Shown here piece after piece: positions 334-48,256 of a DNA stretch of 64,000 nucleotides (positions within the stretch are counted from its first letter, which is position 1; every line of letters starts with the position of its first letter). The position numbers were made by a program, and so were the translations under genes. The DNA comes from an uncultured virus (IMG/VR IMGVR_UViG_3300035208_003515) (Duplodnaviria > Heunggongvirae > Uroviricota > Caudoviricetes), in the IMG/VR virus record IMGVR_UViG_3300035208_003515, one strand, 5' to 3'. The notes under the pieces are model-generated. The model was given only the letters and a program-made list of their open reading frames with translations. It was not told the DNA's origin and ran no database searches.

Positions 334-579
334 TTATTTTCCGAAGGTTGTGAATATTCCATAGTTACCTGGTTCTAATTTAATAACTCTCCCTGTACCA
401 AACTGTTTCTTGTAAGCCTCAGCAGATTTCTGTGCTTCTCTTTTACTGGAGGTAGCACCGGCAAGTGAGTAGACCTTACCGCCGATCACTCTTTTTCCCG
501 ATATCTTCTTTCCCTTAACAGTTGTCACACTTCCGCCACTATGGAATACTATTTGCCCTCGTAGTGTTTTCGCTGTCAT
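334..579 (-). CDS. Small basic protein, paralog of 47926..48099
   Basis: KRVIGGKVYSLAGATSSKREAQKSAEAYKKQ pattern shared with 47926 ORF; AGGAG RBS; own promoter. Confidence 0.7.
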   Translation of the reverse strand: MTAKTLRGQIVFHSGGSVTTVKGKKISGKRVIGGKVYSLAGATSSKREAQKSAEAYKKQFGTGRVIKLEPGNYGIFTTFGK

Positions 580-608
580 TTCTAACTCCTATTCTTACGT
601 ATAGTTTA

Positions 609-637
609 ATAGTACACTATTCTATCTACCTTGTCAA
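609..637 (-). promoter_or_regulatory. sigma70 promoter (leftward)
   Basis: TTGACA-17-TACTAT on minus strand. Confidence 0.7.
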
Positions 638-705
638 GTAAAACTGTATATTTATTTTGTATCTGCAAATTCCAGCCTGTTTTATAAAGATTTCACCATA
701 AATAC

Positions 706-734
706 TTGACAACTTACCTTATATTATATATTAT
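706..734 (+). promoter_or_regulatory. sigma70 promoter (rightward)
   Basis: TTGACA-17-TATTAT, divergent from the 609-637 promoter. Confidence 0.75.
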
Positions 735-753
735 TTTAGTACAGAGGTAGCGT

Positions 754-948
754 ATGGATTACAAAGAACTTAAAGAGAAGGCTGAATCAGTCAGGGACGC
801 ACAGAACTCAAGGGCAAAGGAGAACTACCACTATGCCCGTAGCCTGGGATTCACCTCGGTAGAGGCCATGCTTATCCAGTACAAAAGCAAAGAAGAGATT
901 GACCGGTTGGCAGCAGAAAGGAATAAAGAGGTGAATGATGTCCCGTAG
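754..948 (+). CDS. Hypothetical protein
   Basis: GAGG RBS, directly after promoter. Confidence 0.7.
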   Translation: MDYKELKEKAESVRDAQNSRAKENYHYARSLGFTSVEAMLIQYKSKEEIDRLAAERNKEVNDVP

Positions 949-11857: not shown

Positions 11858-13465
11858 CTATTGTAAAGATATTTCCGTTGACTGTAGTAAAGATTTTGGA
11901 GTTAAAGTTTCTTTCTGTAATATGCTTATATCCAGTGCAGTAGAGGTATATTGCTTTAATAAATCCGATCCCTTTACAGGATAGTCAGAGTACATACGCT
12001 TAACTTCGTTCAAAACCACCGCCCGTTCCGACATTTCAAGTTCACCCAGTTTATCCAATTTGTGATTTTTTAGAGCATTGCCGATTGTAACCGGCGCTAA
12101 CCTGGTCATTGTATAATCTGCGGCCTCTGGATTTGCTTCGATTTGGGATTTTAGCCAGTCGTAGGTTAAAGCGAAAGCGCCTTTGCCTTCTTTGCCTTGA
12201 ATACAACCTATGCCTGAGCTTACTATAAAGGCCGGTGCTGTCATATTTAATCGCCAATCCCCCATTTTATCTGAGGTTTGGACAGGGATTTCACGGGAAA
12301 ACTTCAATCCGTCCACTTCGATTGATAAAAGGGCATCTTCAGCGTGGTTGGAGATTACAAAATTAGCGACCTGTAGTTTAGTTTGATCTTGTACCCAGCA
12401 GTACCAGGGGAGATTGTAGAGCTTGCCCTCTTTGGTATCATCCCCATTGCCGAAGGTTTCAATGAGTTTACCGGTGAGGCCGACTAAAATGCGTTTGATT
12501 ACCTCCCGCTCAAATCCCTTCAAATATTGCTTCCACTCAAAAAGCCTTTCAACGTGCTCACGCAGCGGGTAGACTAAATCCCCATCAGGTTTCCAGTACC
12601 AGGCATCGGTAATCTTGAAGCGACCTTCGCCGTTATCGTAAAGTTCCCGAATGTGAGCGTTGGTCAGGTAATCAGGGCGTTCGCCTACGGGTGTGTAGTC
12701 TATGGTTTGGCTTTCACTGTCTTTATGGGTATAGATGACTGAGTTGAAGTTTCTTTCAACATCTACTACCCCTCTACAGAAGCCATAAGGTACTTTGGAA
12801 GGGGAGTAGAATTTATCACTCTTAAACCACGTCCCATATCGGGTGTCTATTAAATTCGCTGTGTGGTAGGAGAAGGCAGAGTTTACATCATAATCGTAGG
12901 TCTCGAAGTGCCCTCGTTGATGCGCCTCCATCCAACCACCATGTAGACATTTATGAGCATAGTATTGTGCTTCTGGAGGAATATCAATAGGTTTCGGAAG
13001 GTCTAAAGTAGTTAAAATCTCTTTCTGGTAGGCCGCTATGGGGCTTGACAGTGTAGCCGGATGAAGCTCAAGGCGTGATAGCACATCATAAACCCGTTGT
13101 CCTATCTCTTGGGCTTTACGGGCAGCATCCATAGAGTCAACTTCAAAGGGAAGTGAGGGATCGTATTGTGAAATATCCGAAAACTCCGCTGATTTTCCGA
13201 GTTTTATTGACAAGTAGCGGTGTCTCACGAAAAATATTGTGTAGTTATTGACAAACAACGATCCCGACTTCCAAAACTTCTGTAACTGATCTTCTGGGAC
13301 TTTCAACAGAAAACATAGGCGTGCCATTGCCCAATCCAGGTTGTAGAAAACTCTCAAAGTTTCAGGGCGGTCTTTAAGTAAAAATTCCAGATAATCTTGA
13401 TCTTCAAATGTGCCATCAGAGCAGGTCAAGATTTGACCTTGCAGGTGGAATCCGAGCACTCGCAT
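11858..13465 (-). CDS. Divergent family B DNA polymerase
   Basis: Motif A YDYDVNSAF, motif B-like KRILVGLTGK, motif C-like SIEVDG, upstream GGWME; exonuclease acidic residues not evident. Confidence 0.75.
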   Translation of the reverse strand: MRVLGFHLQGQILTCSDGTFEDQDYLEFLLKDRPETLRVFYNLDWAMARLCFLLKVPEDQLQKFWKSGSLFVNNYTIFFVRHRYLSIKLGKSAEFSDISQYDPSLPFEVDSMDAARKAQEIGQRVYDVLSRLELHPATLSSPIAAYQKEILTTLDLPKPIDIPPEAQYYAHKCLHGGWMEAHQRGHFETYDYDVNSAFSYHTANLIDTRYGTWFKSDKFYSPSKVPYGFCRGVVDVERNFNSVIYTHKDSESQTIDYTPVGERPDYLTNAHIRELYDNGEGRFKITDAWYWKPDGDLVYPLREHVERLFEWKQYLKGFEREVIKRILVGLTGKLIETFGNGDDTKEGKLYNLPWYCWVQDQTKLQVANFVISNHAEDALLSIEVDGLKFSREIPVQTSDKMGDWRLNMTAPAFIVSSGIGCIQGKEGKGAFALTYDWLKSQIEANPEAADYTMTRLAPVTIGNALKNHKLDKLGELEMSERAVVLNEVKRMYSDYPVKGSDLLKQYTSTALDISILQKETLTPKSLLQSTEISLQ

Positions 13466-13486
13466 CCGTGCCTCCTTATTTTCTGT

Positions 13487-14629
13487 TTAATTTGGCGTGA
13501 TAAGCAGTTTATAGCAAGGCAACAAGTTATTAGCGACAACCATTTTCTCGCTATTCATAATAATCCTGAAGTGTGCTATCCAGTAATCTCTATGAGTCCC
13601 AGTCTTTGCATGGCATGACCTACATAGAGTGATAAGGTTCTGTGGGTCGCAGTTGCGTTTATTATAATCAATGTGGTGGACACATAACTTAAGCGTACTG
13701 CTACATGAGTAGCAACAGTTACCATCTCTGCTTTTAATAGACTTCTTTAGCCATCTGTTGAAATCAGGTGTATAGTATTGGGCATCCCTACCGCCTCGCC
13801 AACATGGATTATTTGCCCCTGATCTTTTTTCATGGAATCCAGGCTTCCTCCACATTTGTTTACTAGATTTGCTCAGTTTTAGTTTGGTATCAGCAGAAAC
13901 TATTCTGCCTTTACAAGCCTGTCCTACTTTAAGTTTATGTTCGGTAGAAAGTTTTCGGCCTGTAAGCGCTTGGCTAATTTTTTGTCTACTTTCAATAGTG
14001 CGATGGCTACCTTTGTTGTTTTCTTGCATCTCTATTAGCTTCTCTAAAGACTTTGCGGAAAGTGGTTTTCCTTTTTTGCCTAAGCTTATTTTGAGTCTAG
14101 CTTCGGCAGTATGGCATACCCCTTTCTTGGCTATACTTATCTGCATCCGTTTCTTTGGAGTTCTATTTGCCTCAGCTATTTTCGCTTTGTGTTCAGCAGA
14201 GAGTGACACACCTTTATGTGCTTGGCTCATTTTCAGTCTAAATTCAGGTGTTCTACGTAATGCCACGTGATTTGCTCTACGTTTAGCGGTAAAAGGTACT
14301 CCTTTATGGTTCTGACTGAGTTTCAATTTAGTTTCAGCAGTATGAGGATGCCCAGGCTTTCCTGTCTTTGATAGACTTATCTTTAGTTTAGTTTCAATGG
14401 AATGGTGTGTACCTCTCCTCGCTTCCTGTGCCTTTCTTAGTGCAGCCATTGAATTTTCAGAAGCTGGTTTACCTTTTTGGGCTTGGCTCATATGGAGTTT
14501 GGCTTCATCCGAAAGCGACTTACCTTTCTTTGCTAAACTTATCTTCAACTTAGTTTCAGCAGAACGTGGTATGCCAATCTTCGATTGGCTAATGTGTAAT
14601 CTGTGCTCAGCAGATAGTATTCTCTTCAA
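13487..14629 (-). CDS. Homing endonuclease with many NUMOD3 repeats and C-terminal HNH
   Basis: Repeated (H/R)(S/T)xETKLK(I/L)S units; RDGNCCYSC...VHHIDYNKRNCDPQNLITLCRSCH. Confidence 0.9.
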   Translation of the reverse strand: MKRILSAEHRLHISQSKIGIPRSAETKLKISLAKKGKSLSDEAKLHMSQAQKGKPASENSMAALRKAQEARRGTHHSIETKLKISLSKTGKPGHPHTAETKLKLSQNHKGVPFTAKRRANHVALRRTPEFRLKMSQAHKGVSLSAEHKAKIAEANRTPKKRMQISIAKKGVCHTAEARLKISLGKKGKPLSAKSLEKLIEMQENNKGSHRTIESRQKISQALTGRKLSTEHKLKVGQACKGRIVSADTKLKLSKSSKQMWRKPGFHEKRSGANNPCWRGGRDAQYYTPDFNRWLKKSIKSRDGNCCYSCSSTLKLCVHHIDYNKRNCDPQNLITLCRSCHAKTGTHRDYWIAHFRIIMNSEKMVVANNLLPCYKLLITPN

Positions 14630-14640
14630 TTAATATCCTA

Positions 14641-17600
14641 TTAATCTGGTCTATGTGGTATATTGCGAGGCATTACAGTAGGCTTAATGCCACGAGAATA
14701 GCTACCGCCTAGCGAAGCTCTGACCCTAGCTAATTTTAGGAGCCTCCGAGCCAAAGAATTATCGGTCTCCCTCTTTCCCCGAATCCCTACACTTTGCTCA
14801 ATTTGGAGCATATCAAATGCGCTTCGCTTACTCCGATGCTTTTCACTGTAGTAACTGCCGATTAGATAGGCTATCCTGCGGTCATTCCACCCCGCTTCTT
14901 TGAGACTTTTAACCCTGCGTATTCTGTTACGAATCATGTCCTGGAAATTTGAAGCGTTGAAATTCAAATCCTGTTGCGTTCCGTCTATGGCTACAGCCTT
15001 GTCAAAGTCCTCTATCTCACGGGGAATGAAACCTGATCGGCGTAGGATGTCCTTTTCTTTCGGAGTGAGTGCGCCCATTATTTAATCATCCAACTAAATC
15101 CGATTTTAAATCCAGTCTTAGCTAGCATTGTATCTACTACAGCAGTAAAAAGTGGGCTATCCTTAATACCGTAAACACAAAAGAAATGAGGCAGTATTTG
15201 GTTAGCTGGCATTTTGGTTTCGGAAATACGGGAAACCCAATGGTCAACCAACTCATCAAATGTCCATAGTGTGAACGGATACTTTAAATAGTGTTTTCTT
15301 TGCCTCATTTCACCCTCGCCAGTTTAAAGTCCTCTTCATCCGCTTCTTTAAGTAGATAACCAATGAACTTTTCTACCTCTGGTACTGTAACCTCCCCTAC
15401 TCCAAGTATATTCTCAAAGTTGGGCAGGGTTAGATACTGGTCTATAATTTCCTTTGGAAGAGGCAGCCGGTCATTATCAGCAAGGAATTGTGAGATATCT
15501 TTAATAGCCACTTCACCTATAAATTCCATTACTGAAGTACGTCCTGTGGTTTTATCACGGATGATGGAGTGGAGAGTTCTTAATTCTACTTCGGTCATTA
15601 GAATTTACCTATACCTGGTATAGTAATCGAATGTCCCTGAGACTTCATAATCATAATATACACGAAATATAAAGCTATCGCTGCTAATATTATACTAAAT
15701 ATGATGCCCTTCTGCTTGTACCACGGCGGCTTTACCTTTGGCTCAGGCTCCTCAATAACAGGCTTCGACCTTTTAGTAAATGTAGGTACGTTGGGATTTA
15801 CTGGCTCTTCTACCGGCGCAGGATAAATATTCTGCGGTTGTGAATATTGTTGCTGGACATACGACTGTGAAGATTGCTGGTAGTTTTGTATAAGGAACTG
15901 GTAGGGATTAGGTTGAGTCTGGGGATTCCAGTTCACAAGTTCAGGAAAAGCAGTTAAGACTTTATTCGTCATATTTACTAACCATATGGTAGTCTCATAT
16001 AGTTCAAACATCTGCTTCTGATAATCAATGGCAGTGGTCTTTTTCGGTTGGAGCTGTTCCTGTGGCTCTTCTGTGGGCATCTGCATACTCATAAACTCTA
16101 CTCACTTCTTATTGATGAGCTTTTCAATTCGCTCTAAATGGTATCCTATGAAAAAGTATAGTGAAAAAATCAATGCTAAAAGTGCCCAGTCGTGCATGTT
16201 AAAAATCATCCATAACTCAGCAGCTATTGCCAGTAACACGATTGATACTATTAGTGGTATGTACTTCATTCTGTCACCTCGTCATAAATTTCTTTAACTT
16301 CAACCACAGTCCACCAAAGCTACCCTTAATTTTTTCCTGCAACTTAGGATTACGCTTATAGGCTGTGTAAAAGACTACTCCTAAGACAACTAAGACAGGG
16401 ATAGATATATACCAGAAATATACGGCAGCATATACTACGGCTGCACAGGCCATAATTATAATAGCAGGACGGTTATTTTCTTTTTGCTCAGTCATCACAA
16501 ACATCCTCACATTCCCATGCCTTGACCTGTTCAAGCAGGCCGATTACTTCTAAACCGTTAAGCCCTGCTACTTTCCATGCGATTTTACCATCGTGATCCT
16601 GTGTAATAACTAATATACCATCTACATTGGCCTTGTCTTTGATAACATCGTTCAATAGAGAATTGATTTCATTTTGTCCTAATAGATCGCTAACTGTGAT
16701 CTTCTTGGATTTGGGGAGTTTAAAGACACGCTGCTTCATGCAAATACCTCCGTCAATTTTTTCTCAATCTCAGGCCAGGTCTCAGCACCTTCAATAATAA
16801 TCTGTGTAGGATAGAGATCAGAGGGTCGATAGTGTACTACATAGCCCTTCTTTTCTATCGCTGACTTTATTTTAGCATAGTCAAGGCCAGCGACATTGCG
16901 CTCTAACTCTATGTTAAGGATTAACAACATGGCGATCTCACAATGTTATAACATAGTGGCAACCAGCATCTAATTTGTAATCATTGTAGAAAGTAATAGT
17001 GATATAAGTCGTGTTGCCAACGTGGTTCAATTGTTGTGTGTATAGGGTCTGGTCTAAAATGATAAGTCTGCCTTTTGTTGAATGAGACGTACAGGCAAGG
17101 TTAGAGCACACACATATAAATAACGCTACTATTCCAAGATATATAAGTATATCAAATAAAATGTCTGTTTTTATCCCTTTTACCATTTTATCCTCCAATG
17201 TGCATTATTCGTTGTCCTTATAGCGAATATAAGCAACGTGGTATCTCCGATATTAGAACTTCCCTGTTCCGATACTAAAAGATATGCAAGATAGTAAGAA
17301 AACAAACAAGTAGACAGACAGTGAAATTCTATTAATAGTCGAATACATTGCAGAGTATTCGGGGAATTTGCGGAATGTGATGATTACGCCACTTACAAAG
17401 CCTAATGCTGCAAGTACAATAGGGATAAGATTAACTTGCTCATTACTAAATATGATCTGCCCAATAATACTTGATAGAAATACGGTAGTGAACCCTGCCA
17501 AGCCATTAAAGAATCCAACAAATAAAAATCCTCCAATCCCCAATTTGTCATTTCCATCGTCTGCTATATTGTGCATTGTATAGTTCCTCCTGTTTTGCGC

Positions 17601-19785: not shown

Positions 19786-20602
19786 ACTCTGGTTACTACT
19801 CTTAATTCCTTTACTTCTCACTGGTTTTGCCTGTGTAGGAAATGATGACACGGCAGCGGCAGATTCACTTGCTTCAAAGTTGGCTGCAATGCAGGCTACC
19901 ATACTTCAACATACGGCGGTCATCGATTCCTTAAAATCCGACATAAATCAAAAGGCCTCCAAATCTGAGATAGATGATCTCAATAGAAAAATAAACAATC
20001 TACCCCAGGGTGGCACTTCCTCTGATGTCTACACAAAGGCACAGGTCAATGAGGAAATAAACAAGGCTATTAAGGCACTAAAAGAAGACACTGACCAGTC
20101 GTGGATAAAGAAGACCACAACTACTACGACCACTACAACTGGTACTATATCTGATTATGCTAAACTCATGGATTCAGACGGTGAACTTGAACTATGGTTA
20201 GAGTGGACAGACCCAGACCGTGACGATATAAGGTTCTCTTCTAATTCGGTAGATTTCCAGGTCGCAGTTAAAAATAAGAGTGATAGCACCTGTAAATATA
20301 CAATAGAAATGCGGTTCACTCCTGATGTGGAAGTAGCAGTAAGTTCTTTATCTACGGATGCTACTCAGATACCCAACCCTAACGGTAGCCCTTCTACTAT
20401 CACCGAAAGACCGGATATGGGCACATGGACTATGGAAGGGGCAAGATATCCAGATGGGAGCAAGAGTGCGATTACTCTTGTCTCAGCAGAAGGTAGAATA
20501 TCCCGCAATGCCATAGATAAATATACCATCACCTTGAGACTATCAGAGGGAACACAGAAAGCATACTGGTCAAGAAAATTCTACATTGCAGAAATAGACT
20601 AA
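19778..20602 (+). CDS. Putative lipoprotein with coiled coil and Thr linker
   Basis: Signal peptide with lipobox-like GFA-C; poly-Thr; beta-rich C-terminus. Confidence 0.7.
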   Translation: MNKLWLLLLIPLLLTGFACVGNDDTAAADSLASKLAAMQATILQHTAVIDSLKSDINQKASKSEIDDLNRKINNLPQGGTSSDVYTKAQVNEEINKAIKALKEDTDQSWIKKTTTTTTTTTGTISDYAKLMDSDGELELWLEWTDPDRDDIRFSSNSVDFQVAVKNKSDSTCKYTIEMRFTPDVEVAVSSLSTDATQIPNPNGSPSTITERPDMGTWTMEGARYPDGSKSAITLVSAEGRISRNAIDKYTITLRLSEGTQKAYWSRKFYIAEID

Positions 20603-20689
20603 ATTGCCCCGTCAACTCAAGAATAAATACAAGTGGTATATAAGACAGATACTCGTCTACTCTTGTATGCCATTTAGAAAATTTATAAA

Positions 20690-21610
20690 TTGGATACTAT
20701 GGAAATAAAAACCTGTTCTAAATGTAATCAAGAGCTGCCGGTGGAGGCCTTTCGTAAGAAGAAAGGTTGCAAATACGGAGTTGCTGCTGTTTGCAAATCT
20801 TGTCTTAATGCTGTGGTAAATGAATGTCATTATGGGGAAGGGATTACAAAAGTCTGTAGTACCTGTAAACAAGAATTACCATTAGAGCAGTTCAGTAGGC
20901 ATATCCGCATGAAAGATGGCGTTAGGGCACGATGTAAAGGGTGTGAGGCTAAACGTAGTGCTGTTTATGACAAAACAAAGCAAGGGAAATCTCGTTTTGA
21001 GCGCTTTAGAAAAACAGAAAAGGCAGAAGCTATAAGGCAGCGTTATCAAGGTAGCCCAAAGCAAAAAGCGTGTAAAAAGAGACACGAAAAAACTCCTAAA
21101 TGCAAAGCTACAAGGGATGCATACAGGGCTTCACCAGAAGGTGCTGCTAAAACTAAAGCCACAAATCAGAAGCATAAGAAAACTGAAAGACACAGGATTA
21201 CTACACACCTTTATAATCAAAAACGCAGTAAAATAGCGGGTGTCCGGTTAGATGCAGCCATACGAAGTGGCATATGGTTAGGGTTAAAAGGTAAAAAGAA
21301 TGGGCGTAAATGGGAATCACTCGCAGGGTATACTCTTAAAGAATTAATGGATCATATCGAGAACTTATTCCAACCAGGGATGACTTGGGATAATTATGGA
21401 ACGTGGCATCTCGATCACGTGATCCCAAGAGTGGCATTTTTCTATACAGAGGCCGAGGACAATGATTTCAAGCGATGTTGGGCGTTAGATAACCTACAAC
21501 CGTTATGGTGGCAGGATAATTGTAGGAAGCATTCTAAAATCATTAAACCATTCCAACCTACACTTGATTTACTGTTTAAGAGCAAACATTCACTTGACAA
21601 GATTAACTAA
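20690..21610 (+). CDS. Free-standing HNH homing endonuclease with tandem Cys4 zinc fingers
   Basis: KTCSKC..CKSC, KVCSTC..CKGC; GMTWDNYGTWHLDHVIP...NLQPLWWQDN. Confidence 0.88.
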   Translation: MDTMEIKTCSKCNQELPVEAFRKKKGCKYGVAAVCKSCLNAVVNECHYGEGITKVCSTCKQELPLEQFSRHIRMKDGVRARCKGCEAKRSAVYDKTKQGKSRFERFRKTEKAEAIRQRYQGSPKQKACKKRHEKTPKCKATRDAYRASPEGAAKTKATNQKHKKTERHRITTHLYNQKRSKIAGVRLDAAIRSGIWLGLKGKKNGRKWESLAGYTLKELMDHIENLFQPGMTWDNYGTWHLDHVIPRVAFFYTEAEDNDFKRCWALDNLQPLWWQDNCRKHSKIIKPFQPTLDLLFKSKHSLDKIN

Positions 21611-21682
21611 AGTATGCAATGCTAAGATATTGACCTCACTTCAAATGAAAAGGCATTGTTTTGATGCCAGGTAACTTTTAAG

Positions 21683-22352
21683 ATGGTTCTTGATGGTAGA
21701 GATGCCCCCATCCAGGCAACTGGAATGGTGAACCCTGTAAACTCGGTGAACCCTAAACCTTTTAGGCATGGGAATACCGAACCAAGCATGAGAGATAATC
21801 TCAAGGCGTGCGTAGAGAACGGACACAGGGCATCCAATTTGGATGAAGGTACGTTCCGAACCAAAGCGAAAACTTTGGAACAGCACAGAAATGATGCTGT
21901 CACCTGTAAAGGTAGTAACATTTTTGATCGTTTCAACCATAGTCGGGATCATCGGCTTCGCCCTTATGGTGGGCTTCATTGCCTCCATGAACACCAGCGG
22001 CATGACCACGATGGACATCCTGGTGCTGGGCTTCATCCCGACCCTTTTCTTGATCGCCATCCTCTACGGGGTAAAGAAAAACTGCCCACAATTTCAGCAA
22101 TGAGATTGCACAAACAATCCGTAAATTCGGTGAACCCTAAACTCTATGAGCAAGGGAATACCGAGCCAAGCATGAATCTTAGATTCAAGGCGTGTGTAGA
22201 GAACGTACACGGATCATCCCAAGTGGATGAAGATTCGTTCCGAACTGCGAAGAAATTTGCAGAACCAACCAGAAATGAGTTGGTCGCCTGTTAATCAGGT
22301 GTAACAAATTTGAGTCCGTATGATTACTGGCGGTCGCAGCGGCGGCATCTAA
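21683..22352 (+). CDS. Intron-split 66-aa two-helix membrane protein, putative major coat protein (exons 21683-21697, 21927-22072, 22313-22352)
   Basis: Splicing at the P1/P10-defined sites gives one open frame: MVLDGIVSTIVGIIGFALMVGFIASMNTSGMTTMDILVLGFIPTLFLIAILYGVVRMITGGRSGGI*; C-ending codon bias; strong 3' hairpin. Confidence 0.82.
21698..21926 (+). mobile_element. Group I intron 1 (229 nt, ORF-less)
   Basis: P1 exon GGU with IGS GCC (U-G at splice site); P10 GAU/AUC; P2 GCAA loop; P3 CCCUGU/ACAGGG; P4 UCGGU/ACCGA; P7 GAACG/CGUUC; P8 CAUCCA/UGGAUG; P9 hairpins; terminal G at 21926. Confidence 0.88.
22073..22312 (+). mobile_element. Group I intron 2 (240 nt, ORF-less), paralog of intron 1
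   Basis: P1 exon GGGU with IGS GCCC; P10 ACU/AGU; P2 CAAUUUCA-GCAA-UGAGAUUG; P3 AUCCGU/ACGGAU; P7 GAACG/CGUUC; terminal G at 22312. Confidence 0.88.
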
Positions 22353-22360
22353 GCCGTTTC

Positions 22361-22400
22361 AGGGGAGAGGCCTCAATAAAAGGGGCTTCTCCCCTACTTT
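22361..22400 (+). terminator. Strong hairpin after the spliced gene (terminator or mRNA stabiliser)
   Basis: AGGGGAGAGGCCTC / GGGGCTTCTCCCCT 14-bp stem, then ACTTTT. Confidence 0.7.
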
Positions 22401-22418
22401 TAAAAAATAGGAGGCTTA

Positions 22419-22553
22419 ATGGAGAAACAATTTAAGACTTATACAGGAGCAGAAAACTTCTGGGCTAAAATGCGGAAGTCAGGATATAATGCTCGTGTTG
22501 TGACACAGAAAGGCAAATGGACAGTCATTTATACTAAACCAAGAAAGAAATAA
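22419..22553 (+). CDS. Small basic protein (44 aa)
   Basis: Not in track; AGGAGG RBS; MEKQFKTYTGAENFWAKMRKSGYNARVVTQKGKWTVIYTKPRKK. Confidence 0.75.
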   Translation: MEKQFKTYTGAENFWAKMRKSGYNARVVTQKGKWTVIYTKPRKK

Positions 22554-22565
22554 CAGGAGGACAAA

Positions 22566-22670
22566 ATGAAGTTTCAGGGAATAAAGATAAGCAAAGTGAA
22601 AAAGTACAAGGGTGTTACCCTTAAAGGCGGTAAAAAGAAAAAGGCCGACCTTATCAAAATAAAACTATAG
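22566..22670 (+). CDS. Lys-rich peptide (34 aa)
   Basis: Not in track; AGGAGG RBS; MKFQGIKISKVKKYKGVTLKGGKKKKADLIKIKL. Confidence 0.7.
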   Translation: MKFQGIKISKVKKYKGVTLKGGKKKKADLIKIKL

Positions 22671-22680
22671 GAGATTAGTT

Positions 22681-22803
22681 ATGGCGAAAAAGAAAGACGC
22701 ATTAGGTAAGATACTGGACTTTAAAGCTGTGAGACTTCATGGCTTAAAGAAAAAGAAGGCAGTAAAGACACCTAAACAGACTAAAATACACTTTGCATTT
22801 TAA
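22681..22803 (+). CDS. Lys-rich peptide (40 aa)
   Basis: Not in track; AGGAG RBS; MAKKKDALGKILDFKAVRLHGLKKKKAVKTPKQTKIHFAF. Confidence 0.7.
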   Translation: MAKKKDALGKILDFKAVRLHGLKKKKAVKTPKQTKIHFAF

Positions 22804-22813
22804 GGAGCAGAAT

Positions 22814-22972
22814 ATGGCTAAGAAAGTGGTCAGCATTAAATATAATGAAGGCCCGTTCACTTATAGGGCTGATGCTGTTAAAGTGCAGAGGCAATATAAA
22901 TTGCGTGGTCACAAGGCAGTAATTGTTAAATTAGCAAAGGGATACCGTGTTGCTGTCACTAAGTATAAATAG
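22814..22972 (+). CDS. Small basic protein (52 aa)
   Basis: Not in track; AAGGAG RBS; GPFTYRADAVKVQRQYKLRGHKAVIVKLAKGYRV. Confidence 0.75.
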   Translation: MAKKVVSIKYNEGPFTYRADAVKVQRQYKLRGHKAVIVKLAKGYRVAVTKYK

Positions 22973-22981
22973 AGGTGTGCG

Positions 22982-23431
22982 ATGGCCTTTAATTTAAAGA
23001 GATCAGCAGGGGAACTCTATAATAAGGGTGTATTAAAAGCCCGTGAATTAAGGGATGAGGATCAGGTTAAAAAGGGCTTAAAGGTTGCTGTTGTAGTAGA
23101 AAGGGCAGATGGTAAACGTCTCTTAATTAATACCTATGGGGTACGAGGACATGTACAAATAGATGATTTTGAAGAAGAAAGGGTCAAGAACTTCTTAGGT
23201 CATAATCTGGGGCAAATCCGTACTGCACTGAAAGCAGGGAAAAAATGGGTTGATAATAAAGAGAGGATAACCTTTGACTTTTCCACTCCGGCTAAAGCAC
23301 CATCAATGAAAACACCATCAATTAAACTTCCGAAAAAGCGTAAGAGTGCGCCGGTCAGACGGATAGTCACGCCACGATCTCACAAGCAGGGATTTTATTC
23401 AATAACAGAAGGCAGGTGGGTAGATTGGTAA
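22982..23431 (+). CDS. Basic hypothetical protein
   Basis: GAGGTG RBS; K/R-rich C-terminus. Confidence 0.7.
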   Translation: MAFNLKRSAGELYNKGVLKARELRDEDQVKKGLKVAVVVERADGKRLLINTYGVRGHVQIDDFEEERVKNFLGHNLGQIRTALKAGKKWVDNKERITFDFSTPAKAPSMKTPSIKLPKKRKSAPVRRIVTPRSHKQGFYSITEGRWVDW

Positions 23432-23649
23432 AATGGTATCATCCTGGTGTTCAGATGAACTGGCATCACTCTGATCTAAGAGAGGTAAGACGAAGGAACG
23501 CTCTACGAGCGCATAAAGGTGATCTCTTAGCTACAGCACGGGCACTTCAACAGTTAGCTAATGTTACTAATGTAGGAGTAGTAGAGAAAGCGGCACGCCA
23601 GGATGCGGTACATTTCTTTGCGAAATATCATTCTAAGAAGGGGAGATAA
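23416..23649 (+). CDS. Basic hypothetical protein
   Basis: ORF track; R/K/H-rich. Confidence 0.65.
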   Translation: MGRLVKWYHPGVQMNWHHSDLREVRRRNALRAHKGDLLATARALQQLANVTNVGVVEKAARQDAVHFFAKYHSKKGR

Positions 23650-23654
23650 CTGAT

Positions 23655-26600
23655 TTGAGATTGAAAGTATTTAAGCCTGTGATGCAGGTTTTGTTTGTTA
23701 TAGTGCTTCTACTATCAGAAGCATCAGTTTTTTTTACACCGTATAAAGTAGATGCTGCTCCCATAGTAGAGGGAAACACAGTCAGGATATCACTGAATGA
23801 TGCCTATATTGAAGCTACTCCGGCTACTCTTACATCTTCGGGGTGGGTAGATGTTACATTCTGGACACGATACTATGAAGGGCCGGTGGATGTAGTTTAC
23901 GGGTTTAATGGGTTGGATAATGTCAAAGCTGTCAATCCCCAGGTGTGGGAAAGCTATGTCCATAATAAAACACGTCAAGTTCCTGCCGTTCTAACAGGAA
24001 CATTCAAACCGGATAAAGTTATCTCAACTAATACGGCAGCACTTCGACCATTGAAGGCTGATACGGATTTGAGCCTTAATTCTAAATACACAGAGATTAC
24101 ATATGAGCAAACTGATCCAATCATAGCAAAAGCAGAACGTCAGACTATTAAATTAGCCTATGATACCTATGATTCAAAAACGGGCACGTATTCTTATAAA
24201 TACAATGGGCAGGTTGCTGAAAACTATACAGAAACTTACGTTGACTGGAATCCTAAATCACAGCCAGTCACTAATACTTTATCTCATGCAGGAGCAAATA
24301 AATGGGACGTAGCTCAATATAAATCAGTCGCAAAGAACGAAGTGCAGAAGGCAAGGGTATGGATTGACATACCTTTCAACGGCACTAATGTAGTTTCAGG
24401 CAAATATAACATCGGCATAAAACCGTCTAATTTAACACTTCAACAGGCAAAGGATCAGAGCAAATTATGGTTACTTGACCCCTGGTATAACGCAAGTTGG
24501 TTGTATCGCAAAGCTATAGTTATTGGTCAAACAGACGACTTGGGGCCTGGTATTTATTATCAAGTTAAATTGCTAATTGGAAAATCAAATGGCGCAGATT
24601 TAGAGGACTTTGATTGTGAGAATCATTGCGAGGAGGATTTCGATGACCTGAGATTCACTAAAGACGATGGGACAACCTTACTTGACTACTGGATAGAATC
24701 TTCAGGTGCATCTGGTACATCTTATCTGGCTACTGTATGGGTGGAAGCTGAAATGGAAGATGCCGCAGCAGATACTACGATATATGTTTATTATGGTAAT
24801 GTAGGGGCACCAGCAGCCAGCAGCGGCGCAAATACTTTCATTAAATTTGATGACATTGGGCGTGGCAATGATGGCGATGCTGTAGGGGGTAGCTGGACAA
24901 ATGTGAATAATGTGGAGATAGATACTGCAATATATTGGCCTGGTGCTGGCTCGTCTCGGTCAGGAAGGTGGGCTGGGACAGTTTCAGATGCACGGGTAGC
25001 GCAGTTGTCATCATCTACTATCGCAATACAATTCAGGATGCAAAAGACTGATGCGGCGGGCCCTGTGGTGTGGCATGGTGACGGCGTTACCACAATGTAT
25101 CCGGTGTTCAGGGCTACTGAGGGTTGGGAATACTACGATGGGGTGGGGTACACCAATGTTGAGACCCTGTCTCATAGTACGTGGTATCTATTCGAGTACA
25201 GGAATTTTGACTACGATGCTAACACTTTTGACATGGTTCGGGATGGTGTGGTTAAAAAAGTGGGAGCCGATATGGCGGCATCCGCATTGGGGGCTAATAG
25301 TATACGCCCATACCAGTTAAGCGGGTCTGGTGATTTTTATATAGACAATCTCATCGTCCGCAAATGGACTGCCAATGAACCTGTTTTCTCAAGCGCAGGC
25401 GTAGAAGAGGGATTCCCTACATGTGCCTTAACAGGCACAATAACTACGGCTACAGATGCAGATATAATAACAGGTGGGGAAACCATTATCTTAACATTAA
25501 CAGGTGATACGTGGGTAGCCGCAGGTGCAACTTTCAATGCAATAAGAGATGATATTATTGCAGGTATGGATTCAGCACAAAGTGAGGCAAATGGTTGGGA
25601 TGCAGAATATAAAGCTAACGCAGCAGCATATGTGGCGGATGTAGTAAGAACAAATGATACTGTAGTTACGGTTACAATGTCAGCGTTAGCAACTTATTCA
25701 GTAACAGCATCCGAAACTATTACAGTTACAGTTCCGGCAGCAGCATTAACGTTAGGAGCTGATGTCGTAGCCTCTCCCACTTTTACCATTACAAAGGTGT
25801 TACCATTAGTTTCAACACAGGCAACATCAGTAATTACTACAACCTCTGCATTGGGGAACGGAACTATCACAGATTTAAACGGCGGCGGTAATGCAACTGT
25901 TAGGGGATTTGAGTATGATGTTGATACAGGCGCACCTTATGCACATGAAGTACATGATAATGGTTCTTACGGTGTAGGAGCCTATACCAAAACAATGTCG
26001 GGCTTAACGTCAGGAGAGCTTTACTATAATAGGGCATATGCTACATCTCCCCTCGGAACTGGATACGGAACAGAGGTAACTTTTCTTACCTTGCCATCCG
26101 ATCCTGCTTCTATAACAGCAACGGTAGTCAGTGATTCTGAAATAGACTTAACCTGGCCTGCTGTTGTTTGCGGTGCTGGTACAGTTGTTAATTATTATGT
26201 AAGAGCGAATCTCGGCTCTGCGCCGACATTTAGCGGAGCAGGCGGGACAACAATTTATGATAGTACACTTCTGGCCTATAATCACACTCCACTTGGATCG
26301 GGTGAACACTGGTATTATAGGATGTGGGTTAGGATTACTGACGGAGGGTTAGAACAGTATTCGACAAACTTTGCCGCAGATGATGGTACAGTATTTATTG
26401 CTCCGACAGTCACTACAGGTATATGTTCAGGATCAGGGACTACGTGGGCGTTATTAAATGGGAACGTGACTGCAACGGGTATACCTACAACTGTGACACA
26501 AACAGGCTTTGAGTATGGGTTGACTACAGCGTATGGAACGCTATCTCCCATGAATGTAGGTTCTTTTGGTGCAGGAGCATTTTTTTCAAATCTAACAGGA

Positions 26601-42584: not shown

Positions 42585-44156
42585 ATGAAGTGGATCGCTC
42601 CTACAATTCTATCCCTTTCAATCGGTTTAGCTATTTTATTTCGTGTTGTGTTGCCGTGGGCACAGGTCTTTGGTGGTAGTGTCCTTTTAAACACACCTGA
42701 TGCCTATATTATGGTAAGGTATGCAGACTGCTGGCCTGATATCCCATCTTATGATTACTTTATGGACTTTCCACAAGGTTCTAACGTCTTAATTACAGTA
42801 TGGCCTTCAGCTATTGCTATGTTTGCCCGAATCATCGGTGTGAGTAATATGATCTCGGCTGCGGTTTTACCTCCTATCCTTTTCCTATTTACGTTAATTC
42901 CAGTCTATATAATAGGCCGTACTCTTTTTAATAAGTGGGTAGGTGTAGGCGCTGTGGCGATTTTTTGTCTATTACCAGGGGAGATTCTAAACCGGACAAT
43001 GCTTGGCGCTGCGGATTATCACGCATGGGAGATATTCTTAGTCTCTAATATAATGATGCTGGTCATTATCGCTGCCGAGAATTATAAGCGTCCTATAGAC
43101 CTATTCTTTTACTCTGTCGGAGCTATCGGGTTGTGGGTTCTCTACTGGTATTCATGGGTTGGTTCGGTATGGTTATTATTCGTCCTGGGAGTTTGCTTGA
43201 CAATATGGGTTGTCCTGAATACTCGTAAACCTGTGCTTCTCGGGATGTATATGCTTGGTGGACTTGGGATGCTGGCAGGTGCGCTTTTAATCTCACCTGA
43301 AAGAACGAAGTTTTATGCCCTGCAATTCCTCAATATTTTTACCGTCAACCTTTCTAACGTAGTGACTGAGGAATTTCCGGTGTTCTTTTCGTACGGAAAG
43401 TTCGACCTTAATACAATCTGGTTGTACTTCGGGATTACCTTTTATATCGTCTTGATAGGGTTGGGATGGCTGGTTTACCGTTACTTAAAAGAGAGGAAGC
43501 CGGTTGACCTTGTATTCTTGATATGGACGATAGTTTCGCTGGCTATGATGATAGCGAGGCGCAGGTTTGATTATTACTTTGCTATCAATGCTGCCATTAT
43601 CACTTCGTTCGTTCTTGTCTCAGTAGCGCAGTACCTAAGTATAAACAAAGCTACAATAGTTAAGATAGGAGTGGTGGTTGCACTCGCTGTCTGTCTACCA
43701 TTGATACGGGCTGATATCTATATTTCAACAGCAGATACCTATATGCCAAAAGACTGGCAAAATGCCACACAATATCTTAAAGAGGAAAGCGACTACAAAA
43801 CTTACGTAAAAGGCGGTGAATACAAGTTTGGTGTGTTTTCATGGTGGGACTATGGATACTGGATTATTAAAGAGTCCCATTTGCCCACATATTGTCAAGG
43901 ATCAGAGCGGGACTTAGAGGGTAGTATATTGGTATCGACAGAGCCAGAAAAGGCCGTGGCGAGCCTTAGAGCGCTGAAAATGCGGTTCGTGGTAGTGGAC
44001 ACGGATATGCTAAAAGACAAGTGGTATCCAATTTCAAAAGGGAGGGTAGTTGAAAAGGAGAAGACGCTGGTATATAAATTGTGCAATTCAGAAGCAGTGG
44101 AAGGGTTTAAAATGGTTTACGAATCAGGTCAAGTTAAAGTTTACGAGGTAAAATGA
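42585..44156 (+). CDS. aglB: Oligosaccharyltransferase, STT3/AglB/PglB family
   Basis: Multi-TM; TPDAY, ADYH, VVTEE, RRF, WWDYG and DxxMxxxK (DTDMLKDK) motifs. Confidence 0.92.
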   Translation: MKWIAPTILSLSIGLAILFRVVLPWAQVFGGSVLLNTPDAYIMVRYADCWPDIPSYDYFMDFPQGSNVLITVWPSAIAMFARIIGVSNMISAAVLPPILFLFTLIPVYIIGRTLFNKWVGVGAVAIFCLLPGEILNRTMLGAADYHAWEIFLVSNIMMLVIIAAENYKRPIDLFFYSVGAIGLWVLYWYSWVGSVWLLFVLGVCLTIWVVLNTRKPVLLGMYMLGGLGMLAGALLISPERTKFYALQFLNIFTVNLSNVVTEEFPVFFSYGKFDLNTIWLYFGITFYIVLIGLGWLVYRYLKERKPVDLVFLIWTIVSLAMMIARRRFDYYFAINAAIITSFVLVSVAQYLSINKATIVKIGVVVALAVCLPLIRADIYISTADTYMPKDWQNATQYLKEESDYKTYVKGGEYKFGVFSWWDYGYWIIKESHLPTYCQGSERDLEGSILVSTEPEKAVASLRALKMRFVVVDTDMLKDKWYPISKGRVVEKEKTLVYKLCNSEAVEGFKMVYESGQVKVYEVK

Positions 44157-44308
44157 AACACAAGCTTGTATGTCTTAGATGTGGCAAGGAATGGGAGTCA
44201 GAAGATAAGTTTGTTGACCGTTGCCCTTGCTGCAAAAGCTATAAATATGATACTCCACCAGAGTCAAATTATATTCATATAGTAAGGATAAAGAAAAATG
44301 AAGTGTGA
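44153..44308 (+). CDS. Small zinc-ribbon protein (51 aa)
   Basis: Not in track; CLRCGKEW...RCPCCKSY; similar pattern to the 18952 ORF. Confidence 0.6.
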   Translation: MKHKLVCLRCGKEWESEDKFVDRCPCCKSYKYDTPPESNYIHIVRIKKNEV

Positions 44309-44486
44309 AAAATGTGGCAGGGACAACCTATCCGAACGTGAATTAGAGGTACATTTGAAATATTATCATATGCAAGATAATAACCAGCAGCGGATTAGCG
44401 CCGGTGTATGTCCTGATTGCCGTGGGGATTTATGGCATGAAAGCGGCTGTATTTCCTGCCATTCCTGCGGGTATAGTAAGTGTTAG
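44298..44486 (+). CDS. Small double zinc-finger protein
   Basis: CEKC..H...H plus CPDC...GCISCHSCGYSKC. Confidence 0.7.
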   Translation: MKCEKCGRDNLSERELEVHLKYYHMQDNNQQRISAGVCPDCRGDLWHESGCISCHSCGYSKC

Positions 44487-44495
44487 GAGAGTAAA

Positions 44496-45167
44496 ATGAT
44501 AGCAGCAGTAATTCCAGCCTACAATTCAGAAAAGCATATAATGGATATAGTCAAGAAAACCTCTGCATTTGTTGATATAGTCATAGTAGTAGACAATAAT
44601 TCGCATGATAAAACAGCCAGGTTAGCGGAATGTGTAGGTGCTATGGTAATACATGAATATATCCAGGGTGCAGGTGCAGCTACTAATCGAGGTATGCAGA
44701 TAGCGAAAGCGATGGGGGCAGACATAGTAGTGACCTTAGATGCGGATGGTCAACATAATCCAATGGATATTCCACGGGTAGTAGAACCTGTCTTGAGAAA
44801 TGATGCTGATGTGGTATTCGGGTCACGTTTCAAGAATCAGAATGTAATCCCATATTATCGTAGGTTTGGGATTAAAGTAATTACGTTATGCTGTAATTTG
44901 TACTCAAAGGAGTGGCTAACGGATGCTCAGTGCGGGCTAAGGGCTTTCAGTAAATTCGCACTAAAGGCTTTTAATATAGAAGAGCATGGGTACGGTGTTA
45001 TGATAGAAGAGGTAATGAAAGCCAAGAAGCTCTATTTAAGAATAAGTGAAGTACCTGTGCAATGCTTCTATCACGGGTTAAAAAATGACTCACATATGAA
45101 TCCGGTTAAACAGGGGATTTTAACTTTACTCTGTATTTTGAAATGGCGACTTAAATTAATGATTTGA
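44496..45167 (+). CDS. GT2 glycosyltransferase (polyprenol-phosphate sugar synthase-like)
   Basis: IPAYN, VVDNNSHDKT, LDADGQH, GSRF, TDAQCGLRAF. Confidence 0.9.
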   Translation: MIAAVIPAYNSEKHIMDIVKKTSAFVDIVIVVDNNSHDKTARLAECVGAMVIHEYIQGAGAATNRGMQIAKAMGADIVVTLDADGQHNPMDIPRVVEPVLRNDADVVFGSRFKNQNVIPYYRRFGIKVITLCCNLYSKEWLTDAQCGLRAFSKFALKAFNIEEHGYGVMIEEVMKAKKLYLRISEVPVQCFYHGLKNDSHMNPVKQGILTLLCILKWRLKLMI

Positions 45168-45177
45168 GGAGTGAGAT

Positions 45178-45504
45178 ATGACTGAAAGACCAAGTTGTAA
45201 GAATTGCGAAGAGGCACTGGTTAAGATTAAACACGGCTACCACTGTCCCAACTGTCATTCTCTTTATACAAAAGAACTGAAGATGGTATGGGATGGTGCG
45301 AAAATGAGCAGGGTCATAGTATTGAAGGTATGTAAATATTCAGGGTGTGGGAAAGAATTGGTACAAAAGCCAAATGAGCACCCTGCGGTTTTCAAAAAGC
45401 GGGTCTATTGTGATACCAGGTGCGCTATCGCCGGTCAAAGGGAAGCAAAACACTGGAGGCATGACGGATGGCTCACTATGCCGTCAAAGGACAAGGATTT
45501 ATAA
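45178..45504 (+). CDS. Cys-rich zinc-binding protein
   Basis: Several CxxC motifs. Confidence 0.6.
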   Translation: MTERPSCKNCEEALVKIKHGYHCPNCHSLYTKELKMVWDGAKMSRVIVLKVCKYSGCGKELVQKPNEHPAVFKKRVYCDTRCAIAGQREAKHWRHDGWLTMPSKDKDL

Positions 45505-45536
45505 CTATTGACTAATTATAAATAAGTAAGTAAGAT
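45503..45536 (+). promoter_or_regulatory. sigma70 promoter with AACTA-TTGAC motif (near-leaderless mRNA)
   Basis: AACTA-TTGACT-17-TAAGAT; ATG at 45546. Confidence 0.7.
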
Positions 45537-45545
45537 AGTAGAACG

Positions 45546-45908
45546 ATGTTTAAGCAGCGCAAAATTGGCATATTCTTAGGGATGGCGAAGACTATTATTG
45601 GGAATATCTCGCCCTATGCCGGATACTTGACACTGGCATTGGTGGGGATAATGAGCTTTTACAATACCATCTATCCGTTGTTTAGTAGTTGGGGGATTGA
45701 GATATCGTTTTGGGTATTCTGTGCTGTGCTTGTTTTAATCATATTTATAGTGGCAGTATTGGAGTATGTGTTTATGATGCCCTCATATTATGAAGCAGGC
45801 AATAGGCAGGCGTGGGATGCAGGCGGGCCATTACAAGACAAGATCACTCAGATGGAAAAAGATATTAGCGAAATAAAGAGACTGATAAAAGATGGGCAAA
45901 GAAATTAA
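45546..45908 (+). CDS. Two-TM membrane protein with C-terminal coiled coil
   Basis: Hydrophobicity. Confidence 0.65.
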   Translation: MFKQRKIGIFLGMAKTIIGNISPYAGYLTLALVGIMSFYNTIYPLFSSWGIEISFWVFCAVLVLIIFIVAVLEYVFMMPSYYEAGNRQAWDAGGPLQDKITQMEKDISEIKRLIKDGQRN

Positions 45909-46386
45909 ACTCCGTGGATTTGAACATTCCGACCTTGAAACCTATCGTGGATGGGTAAACGACACTAAAATCGGTGCTTTAATAGGCCGGTCAAAACCTG
46001 TTACTCAGCAGGAACATGAGCAGTGGTATTCAGATTTAATGACAAACAGGGATGCCTTAGTGTTTGCTATTGAAGTAAATTCCCAATATATAGGTAATGT
46101 ATGGCTATGGGATATTGATTGGTTGAATAGAAAAGCTGAAGTCAGAATCTTGATAGGTGAAAGGCATGGACTTGGATTCGGCACTGAGGCGCTTGAATTA
46201 ATCACAAAACACGCCTTCGATAAACTGAACCTTAACCGGCTTTATGCTTATGTGTTCACTCATAATAAACGGGCAAAAGGCGCATTTGAACAGGCACGTT
46301 TCCAGGTTGAATGGACTTTAAAGAGTGAGCGGTTTATTGATGGGGGATATGTAGATACATTAATAATGGCGAGGTTAAAGGAATGA
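45892..46386 (+). CDS. GNAT N-acetyltransferase (RimL/PseH-like)
   Basis: HGLGFGTEAL...LNLNRLYAYVFTHNKRA. Confidence 0.85.
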   Translation: MGKEIKLRGFEHSDLETYRGWVNDTKIGALIGRSKPVTQQEHEQWYSDLMTNRDALVFAIEVNSQYIGNVWLWDIDWLNRKAEVRILIGERHGLGFGTEALELITKHAFDKLNLNRLYAYVFTHNKRAKGAFEQARFQVEWTLKSERFIDGGYVDTLIMARLKE

Positions 46387-46787: not shown

Positions 46788-46790
46788 GTA

Positions 46791-47696: not shown

Positions 47697-47725
47697 TTGA
47701 CAAATAGGCTTTGTGTCTATAATAT
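47697..47725 (+). promoter_or_regulatory. sigma70 promoter of an inserted two-gene cassette
   Basis: TTGACA followed by overlapping TATAAT/TAATAT. Confidence 0.6.
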
Positions 47726-47749
47726 AGATAGTAAATAGGAGTGAATGGC

Positions 47750-47917: not shown

Positions 47918-47925
47918 GAAGTAGC

Positions 47926-48099: not shown

Positions 48100-48180
48100 C
48101 TAACTACCAGCAGATTCGTCAGGGCTTTCTGATTGCAACAGAAAGAGCAAAGAGGACTGGAAACAGCGATTAGACGAATA

Positions 48181-48212
48181 AGCCCCGACCTTAATTGGAA
48201 GGGGCTATTTTT
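48181..48212 (+). terminator. Intrinsic terminator closing the cassette
   Basis: AGCCCC...GGGGCT then ATTTTT. Confidence 0.6.
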
Positions 48213-48214
48213 AT

Positions 48215-48248: not shown

Positions 48249-48256
48249 AAGTAGAT

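Follow-up and report, generated by a model that had tools for sequence, protein, structure and literature searches.

The locus under study lies in a 64,000-nucleotide stretch of DNA from an uncultured virus of the Caudoviricetes (IMG/VR record IMGVR_UViG_3300035208_003515), which is referred to here as the window. On its + strand, positions 21683-22352 hold a gene of 201 nt that is divided into three exons by two ORF-less group I introns and encodes a 66-aa protein with two hydrophobic helices (Table 1). The same phage encodes a replisome organiser domain, a DnaB-type helicase, several HNH endonucleases, glycosyltransferases and radical-SAM enzymes, shows matches to virion structural and tail-spike PHROGs, and carries a run of 15-17 tRNA genes. 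Relatives of the split gene were found with the exon-2 peptide and comprise nine metagenome loci, two of them identical, together with proteins such as P0002. A further IMG/VR locus from the protein-guided search, L019, matched weakly (55% over 22 residues) and was left out. The protein-guided search of 185,579 species genomes gave no match and therefore no host.

Table 1. Features of the intron-bearing gene and its surroundings, with positions in the window.
Feature	Position	Strand	Description
Free-standing His-Me/HNH-type endonuclease gene	20690-21610	+	306 aa; directly upstream of the intron-bearing gene
Hairpin in the 5'-UTR	21652-21668	+	immediately 5' of the ribosome-binding site; read from the sequence, role putative
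Exon 1	21683-21697	+	start codon and four codons, the final one GGU; the same five residues are fused to exon 2 in P0002 and L023
Open reading frame of the unspliced DNA	21683-22294	+	203 codons; continues across intron 1, then exon 2 in a shifted frame, then intron 2; ends 18 nt short of the 3' splice site
Group I intron 1, site A (after CDS nt 15)	21698-21926	+	229 nt, ORF-less, last base G
Intron 1 guide, P10 strand GAU	21701-21703	+	
Intron 1 guide, P1 strand GCC	21704-21706	+	
Intron 1 P7, GAGAACG / CGUUCC	21815-21821 / 21852-21857	+	
Exon 2	21927-22072	+	146 nt; both hydrophobic helices; translation is P0001
Group I intron 2, site D (after CDS nt 161)	22073-22312	+	240 nt, ORF-less, last base G
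Intron 2 guide, P10 strand ACU	22081-22083	+	
Intron 2 guide, P1 strand GCCC	22084-22087	+	
Intron 2 P7, GAGAACG / CGUUCC	22199-22205 / 22236-22241	+	
Exon 3	22313-22352	+	13 codons and stop; contiguous with exon 2 in L025 and L027
Terminator-like hairpin followed by a U-run	22362-22402	+	read from the sequence, function putative

The exons are under strong purifying selection. Compared with its counterpart in locus L020, the window gene is 78% identical at the nucleotide level and 96% at the protein level, and the codon differences comprise 35 synonymous and 3 non-synonymous changes over 67 codons. Distant homologues of 65-78 aa (P0008-P0011) are uninterrupted. PHROG and Pfam searches with the exon peptides and the distant homologues returned no family for the 66-aa protein, its source and cluster names read 'hypothetical protein' only, and its Atlas matches score at most 0.77 and are all without a name. 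Equivalents of the 5'-UTR hairpin, with other arm sequences, stand 5' of the gene in L020, L022, L023, L024 and L027; a promoter/terminator scan flagged the inverted repeat of the window on the minus strand only. The terminator-like hairpin is absent from the + strand list of that scan and has equivalents with altered arms in L020, L023, L025 and L027.

An initial annotation of this DNA had proposed two group I introns at these positions, and the proposal is borne out by empty-site alleles and by covariation across 15 intron copies. More specifically, both splice-junction pairs of the window are matched exactly by intron-less metagenome alleles: site A is empty in L023 and P0002, and site D is empty in L025 and L027. 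Excision at the U.G pair on the 5' side and behind the terminal G on the 3' side restores the frame of the gene. Each guide matches its own exons, as the initial annotation had stated: intron 1 pairs through GGU/GCC (P1) and AUC/GAU (P10), and intron 2 through GGGU/GCCC (P1) and AGU/ACU (P10). P1 is thus only 3-4 bp long, its GGU/GCC core is identical in the two introns, and P10 is the main difference between them. We infer that both introns self-splice with guanosine.

The tandem order is backed by contigs from other sequencing runs. An assembly artefact, in which the repeated intron core would have created the arrangement, is scarcely credible. Run contigs do break at the shared core (X1 records, for example, start or end at 21740-21769), and many variant introns occur together in the same samples; yet X3 record 18 spans 21740-22254 with 0 differences, X2 records tile 21608-22322, also with 0 differences, and multi-intron arrangements recur on the independent contigs L024, L020, L025 and L027. 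An intron-less allele was not seen in the contigs of four DNA runs. Further introns were sought in the window as well: the family HMM returns just the two copies, and Rfam group I searches gave no match near a split-looking DNA polymerase region, nor in the entire window at E ≤ 0.01. Matches to the Rfam families LOOT and SNORA11 were weak and judged to be chance.

Structure was assessed both on the two window copies and on the wider family. RNAalifold, applied to the two copies, predicts P2, P4, P5, P6, P7, P8, P9 and P9.1 with two-sided change in 17 of 55 pairs, and the P3 pseudoknot differs between them (CCCUGU/ACAGGG versus AUCCGU/ACGGAU). The window copies fold far better than shuffled sequences (z of -4.74 and -4.64; 0 of 200 shuffles equal them). 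A family alignment was then built from 15 complete introns of the window and eight metagenome loci, with a structure that includes the P3/P7 pseudoknot and P9.0. Standard pairs fill 95.8% of its 899 cells (60 pairs), compared with 25-38% in slid controls, in which the partners were moved by 1-3 columns. Two-sided change occurs in 43 of the 60 pairs, and 0 of 500 shuffles reach the observed values; because the 15 copies are related, these compensatory changes, like the open frames described below, are non-independent events. By helix, two-sided change affects six of six pairs in P3, five of six in P7 and three of five in P8, and the P9.0 pairs 182-254 and 183-253 covary as well (A-U in 11 copies, G-C in 3). 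The covariation in P2, P3, P9 and P9.1 that had been noticed in the two copies holds up, for P3 on the strength of the larger alignment.

The core of the family consists of P1-P10 with P9.0, P9.1 and P9.2. In all 15 copies the U at -1 is paired to a guide G and the last base is G. A conserved GUAACA tail precedes this G, and the loops L2, G(C/U/A)AA, and L9, GAAA, are GNRA loops on P2 and P9 in 15/15. Subgroup IC3 is characterised by a compact core without P2.1, P5abc and P7.1/7.2 and by GNRA loops on P2 and P9, and the core of the family appears IC3-like on this basis. Compact IC3 introns are known from bacterial tRNA genes such as Azoarcus tRNA-Ile and cyanobacterial tRNA-Leu. The likeness appears to extend to a length of about 200-250 nt, the same missing P5abc, P2.1 and P7.1/7.2, GNRA loops on P2 and P9, a very short guide, and a receptor-like motif in P5 (CCUAA.../...AUGG). 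The P4-P5 sequence is also shared by phage tRNA introns (L004, L007, L016 and L018). Unlike the tRNA introns, the window family sits in a protein-coding gene, has the additional helices P9.1 and P9.2 and the GUAACA tail, and can have GAACG in P7 where the tRNA introns have GACUA.

The standard covariance model, the only one that Rfam has for group I introns, recognizes few of these introns, which agrees with the expectation of the initial annotation. Against a threshold of 50 bits for RF00028, intron 2 scores 31.3 bits (E 7.3e-6) in an alignment that skips the 5' strand of P7, and intron 1 has no match at E ≤ 10. Among the 15 copies, three pass (L024_B with 67.6, L026_C with 55.4 and L027_A with 51.6 bits), four remain below the threshold and eight have no match; our own profiles for the family were built for nhmmer. 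Judged by sequence and predicted structure, this is a genuine group I family that is poorly captured by the standard model.

One reason for the low scores lies in P7. Both window introns carry GAGAACG and, 30 nt beyond it, CGUUCC, as had been reported. The initial annotation had taken this helix for the mark of a distinct intron subgroup. Across the family, the guanosine-binding pair (columns 140-179) is G-C in 15/15, in agreement with what had been seen in the two copies, and the bulged A (column 139) is constant; the second pair is A-U in 13 copies, C-G in 1 and mismatched in 1. Variation sets in deeper. Pairs 142-177 and 143-176 each come in two compensated types (8 A-U/7 C-G and 8 U-A/7 C-G, respectively), the third and fourth pairs switch jointly between A-U/C-G in seven copies (GAAC type) and C-G/U-A in seven others (GACU type), and the last pair is G-C, A-U or U-A. 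Sister introns in the same gene carry GACUG/CAGUC, GACUU/AAGUC, GAACA/UGUUC and, in L028_C, GCAU/AUGC, all of them compensated. At site A alone, P7 is GAACG in the window, GAACA in L022 and GACUG in L020 and L027. GAACG/CGUUC is one of at least five compensated P7 versions within the family.

Outside the family, P7 was surveyed in IMG/VR introns that had been selected on the sequence around it (P4-P6 and J6/7), while P7 itself was unconstrained. The matches listed hold at least 111 distinct related introns, of which 67 have GACUA, 33 GACUU, 4 GACUG and 7 another sequence, and none is of the GAAC type; the helix is therefore indeed unusual. A search of IMG/VR with the exact P7 pattern gave two matches, both of them chance occurrences inside coding sequence. 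When one genome per prokaryote species was scanned with the GAAC-type pattern, 9 of 13 matches were likewise chance in coding sequence, and the other four are group I introns in rtcB genes of Acidobacteriota. In these, the insertion point falls exactly between positions 153 and 154 of the RtcB profile, and the introns fail RF00028 (24.3-27.3 bits for three, no match for one). No paper on rtcB group I introns is among the literature matches listed.

Could GAACG/CGUUC after all be the sign of a structural subgroup of its own, in which the guanosine pocket is altered and another cofactor may be preferred? The absence of GAAC from the related IMG/VR introns would fit such a subgroup, as would the scores of the GAAC-type copies, all seven of which fall below the RF00028 threshold (best 48.3 bits), and the failure of the rtcB introns that share this P7. 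In addition, because the bound G triple is stacked between three further core triples in the crystal structures described in PMC2588497, deeper P7 pairs may tune the pocket. We nevertheless consider a separate subgroup improbable. The G-C pair that binds guanosine, the bulged A and, in 13 of 15 copies, the A-U pair next to it are kept; the GAAC and GACU types alternate in one family, in one gene and even at one site; the changes in P7 are strictly compensatory; and the same source (PMC2588497) mentions that the Candida intron has an A-U pair at a P7 triple. A subgroup set apart by this P7 is also contradicted by the sister introns with other compensated helices, three of which pass RF00028. 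The GAACG P7 is a real, uncommon and compensated helix variant that lowers the score of generic models and is no subgroup marker, and nothing in these comparisons suggests another cofactor.

Across the nine loci compared, members of the family are inserted at five sites in the gene, which follow CDS nt 15 (site A), 36 (site B), 59 (site C), 159 (site D') and 161 (site D). The window has introns at A and D, L020 at A and D', L024 at B and D, and L026 at C and D; L027 has three, at A, B and C, and the exons that separate these measure 21 and 23 nt. Every occupied site is preceded by GGU, and the window CDS holds six GGU, of which two are occupied. Thirteen of the 15 copies have GGU/GCC as P1, the other two have GGGU/GCCC, and P10, 2-7 bp long, is retargeted such that it fits the 3' exon of each copy.

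The initial annotation had explained the window pair by duplication within the gene and retargeting of the guide. This account stands in so far as the family has spread within the gene with changed guides; a recent duplication in this genome is rejected. The introns cluster mostly by site, since the window site-D intron is 93% identical to that of L024 and the window site-A intron 75% identical to those of L020 and L027, compared with 68% identity between the two window introns. The P7-P8 block of the window site-A intron, on the other hand, is closest to that of the window site-D intron (81%), and L025_AB is a hybrid whose first 30 columns are 100% identical to site-A introns and whose last 15 columns are 100% identical to L027_B. 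Copies would accordingly exchange modules by recombination, and new sites would have been colonised because the short constant guide suits any GGU.

The route to a new site could be reverse splicing, or insertion at the DNA level followed by selection for splicing; both routes would give the same site pattern. According to section 9 of a review of group I introns (PMC3984707), 4-6 bases of P1 complementarity suffice for reverse splicing; the section reports no direct evidence and names related rDNA introns at two sites as the best circumstantial support. Like the related group I introns found at separate rDNA sites, the window family sits at sites that have nothing in common but their complementarity to a short guide (PMC3984707, section 9); unlike them, it is found in a phage protein-coding gene, where a stretch of 150 nt holds five sites, each of them preceded by GGU. 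This five-site pattern fits with reverse splicing.

Tandem group I introns with tiny exons are already known from phage genes. A close likeness is to the orf142 gene of Staphylococcus phage Twort, a short phage gene with several ORF-less group I introns and a tiny exon, for which the original intron paper is said to be that of Landthaler and Shub from 1999. The Twort introns belong to IA2, whereas the core of the window family is IC3-like; also unlike Twort, the window gene is only 201 nt long, and five sites are used over its relatives, all of them at GGU and with one 3-bp P1. As described in PMC10136302 and PMC11878797, orf142 is a tail tube gene with three introns, two of which are alike and flank an exon of 23 nt, and exon skipping occurs. 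In Vibrio phage ICP1, the tape-measure and terminase genes, which are essential or structural, are split by neighbouring introns, the splicing of which is documented by RNA-seq and RT-PCR (PMC10448857). The ICP1 introns carry their own endonuclease genes, whereas the window introns are ORF-less, belong to one family and move between sites within one gene.

An unexpected property of the family is that its introns can be read through. According to PMC3073962 (section 8) and PMC3984707 (section 11), in most group I introns of bacteria the 5' splice site is closely followed by an in-frame stop, which bars ribosomes from the core. In the window, by contrast, the frame entered from exon 1 stays open until shortly before the end of intron 2. 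The frame in question divides the P4 strand into the codons UCG-GUG-AAC and is almost free of stops in all 15 family introns. For stop triplets that touch a variable column, the count is 9 of 1040 in that frame, compared with 83 of 1043 and 91 of 1056 for the two remaining frames, and 8 of the 9 fall in the last 35 alignment columns. The core from P4 to P7 is stop-free in 14 of 15 family introns, compared with 3 of 87 related IMG/VR introns; elsewhere, related introns such as L084 and the rtcB intron L158 do have the early stop. A suppressor tRNA was considered as the cause of the stop-free frame and discarded, with none among the 17 tRNA calls.

The open frame also runs across tandem introns. 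In the window (203 codons), L020 (204), L024 (202), L025 (157), L027 (245, through three introns) and L028 (93, with one intron before the contig end), the unspliced frame ends 8-27 nt short of the final 3' splice site; in L022 and L026 it reaches the contig end after at least 157 and at least 180 codons, respectively. The exception is L023, which has 90 codons and a stop at intron nt 112. Introns other than the last have a length of 0 or 1 modulo 3 in 8/8 cases and never of 2. Because a length of 2 modulo 3 would place exon 2 in a stop-rich frame, the lengths of 0 or 1 keep the register. The loop of P1 at site C, similarly, has 8 nt if an upstream intron shifted the frame and 10 nt if the site-C intron comes first. 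The shifted frame of exon 2 is open in 9/9 loci, whether used or not, and this openness may come from the composition of the protein. Because substitutions in the open frame show no codon periodicity (0.327/0.298/0.338), the openness itself appears to be maintained, and not a peptide.

The latter point bears on a reading in which the introns are dual-use coding sequence, that is, the unspliced RNA is translated into a protein of about 200 aa or into an isoform with an in-frame insertion. Such coding is what one might suspect from unspliced frames of 157-245 codons in five complete multi-intron loci, from L020_A (234 nt) and L027_A (219 nt), which are stop-free and divisible by three in length, from P0007, which runs in frame through a site-B intron to the normal C-terminus, and from P6 indels of 3, 6 or 15 nt. 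It is nonetheless unlikely, as the excess of third-position substitutions is absent, six of the eight non-last introns shift the frame, and exon 2 is read in its true frame in some loci and in a shifted one in others, which leaves no common protein.

The open frame, kept in register across tandem introns, would be selected such that ribosomes can pass the unspliced precursor. The reason for the openness is a matter of conjecture. Our leading guess is a need for ribosome passage, which might guard the precursor against Rho or nucleases, or might order the 5'-to-3' folding of look-alike tandem introns. That ORF-less introns were selected to stay translatable while their lineage hopped among five GGU sites with a constant 3-bp guide is a tentative proposal, to which we give clearly less than even odds.

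The missing early stop could also be taken as a symptom of decay. If the elements were inactive relics and the gene were no longer expressed as a spliced 66-aa protein, the very short P1 (3 bp in 13 of 15 copies) and the lack of a stop that bars ribosomes would come as no surprise; in L020_A, which may be impaired, the second P7 pair is an A.C mismatch, and the L025 gene lacks seven codons between sites A and B. We regard decay as very improbable, given that the exons are under strong purifying selection in the spliced frame, all helices are upheld by compensatory change, and the U at -1 and the terminal G are invariant.

The gene directly upstream may account for the inheritance of the introns. 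Its product matches PHROG phrog_1035, 'endonuclease VII' (E 9.1e-29), and other endonuclease PHROGs, with no Pfam match at E ≤ 0.001. Homologues lie directly upstream of the split gene in L024 (76% aa identity), L022 (48%), L023 (46%), L028 (40%) and L026 (38%); upstream of the gene in L020 and L027 there is weak N-terminal endonuclease similarity only, and L025 has just 164 nt of upstream sequence. With 38-76% identity, the endonuclease has diverged far more than its neighbour gene, the exon-2 protein of which is 94-100% identical among relatives. A blastn search of positions 20600-23700 against 50,697 phage records found only a 90-nt match in the endonuclease gene, in six Klebsiella phage records; the introns had no match among the 50,697.

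On its position and similarity, the upstream gene is a candidate homing endonuclease, and it would drive the inheritance of the intron-bearing allele by collaborative, or trans, homing. Section 12 of PMC3984707 reviews two phage systems of this kind, in which a free-standing endonuclease gene stands beside an ORF-less intron, and T4 mobE with I-TevIII is given as an example of trans homing in PMC2790892. The window shares with such cases an ORF-less intron in a conserved phage gene and an adjacent free-standing HNH-type gene. It differs in that several sites of the family lie within 150 nt, such that one cut could co-convert all of them.

Taken together, the observations are best explained by a family of ORF-less group I introns that occupies five GGU sites in one small phage gene and varies in P7, with self-splicing, spread between sites, trans homing and selection for an open frame as its proposed further properties; we put the probability of this joint explanation at roughly 0.85. 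What is new is the P7 series, the dense packing of sites into so short a gene, served by an unchanging guide of 3 bp, the fact that the standard model fails, and the stop-free frame.

These findings have consequences for annotation and for experiment. Because 12 of the 15 family copies and the four rtcB introns of Acidobacteriota fall below the Rfam threshold, pipelines will call broken or read-through genes in their place, as P0002 and P0005-P0007 illustrate. In this family, nature provides a mutational series of P7 beneath the guanosine site, with five compensated versions in introns that are otherwise similar and whose kinetics can be compared side by side. With five GGU sites within 150 nt served by one guide, a small construct would suffice to test guide-directed site change directly. 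The absence of stops from one frame is at odds with the accepted view, in which an early stop keeps ribosomes out of bacterial group I introns. If our reading is true, the gene would hold the densest natural record of guide-directed site change, of the reverse-splicing type, in a protein-coding gene, and the passage of ribosomes would be part of the expression of tandem introns, in reversal of the textbook early-stop rule.

The intron gene, which encodes a 66-aa membrane protein in the window, also occurs at metagenome locus L025 in an allele that begins with GTG and lacks the seven codons between insertion sites A and B, a hybrid A/B intron standing in their stead. This arrangement looks like a trace left in the DNA, either by tandem introns recombining with each other or by exon skipping. 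Many variants of the window intron family, with other P6 and P7 types, are found together in the same samples (sequencing runs X1-X3), and contigs of these runs end or start in the shared intron core (window 21740-21769). The small lysine-rich ORFs downstream of the intron gene in the window have no family match; comparable small ORFs follow the gene in L025 and in a second metagenome locus, L020.

Features in the window and at related loci
Feature	Location	Strand	Source
DNA polymerase-like ORF (535 aa), then NUMOD3 + HNH homing endonuclease ORF (380 aa), then 145-aa ORF	window 11858-15078	-	
Four tiny lysine-rich ORFs (34-59 aa), downstream of intron gene	window 22419-22972		
Large sugar-modification gene block	window 42585-62226		
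tRNA with four-base anticodon (ggcc), within tRNA array	window 63177-63251		ARAGORN
Allele of intron gene with hybrid A/B intron	L025:165-807		
rtcB group I intron region	L158, ~400-900		

Related introns were also observed in other genes. The IMG/VR contig L084 (1152 nt) carries two closely spaced group I introns, and probably a third, in an unannotated protein-coding gene whose product has no Pfam match. The P9.1 motif and GUAACA-type tail are common to these introns and the window family; their P7 reads, in order, GACUA, GAGCA and GACUA, and the first contains an early in-frame stop of the classical kind.

In four Acidobacteriota genome contigs (L151, L158, L159, L160), a group I intron with a GAAC-type P7 lies in the RNA-ligase gene rtcB. 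Its insertion point falls precisely between positions 153 and 154 of the RtcB profile, and GGGGU directly precedes it. The Rfam group I model RF00028 (threshold 50 bits) scores these introns at only 24-27 bits, or gives no match. A short way upstream of the L158 intron is the end of an intein.

Elsewhere in the window, the DNA polymerase-like region, within which no group I intron match was found, may represent a polymerase gene interrupted by a free-standing endonuclease. The tRNA to which ARAGORN assigns a four-base anticodon is not among the matches of the Rfam tRNA model. The sugar-modification block encodes an STT3/AglB-like oligosaccharyltransferase, several glycosyltransferases, WbqC, a DegT aminotransferase, an epimerase/dehydratase, two radical-SAM/SPASM enzymes and methyltransferases; an FtsH-like AAA protease is present as well. 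Such a gene content is uncommon as phage cargo.
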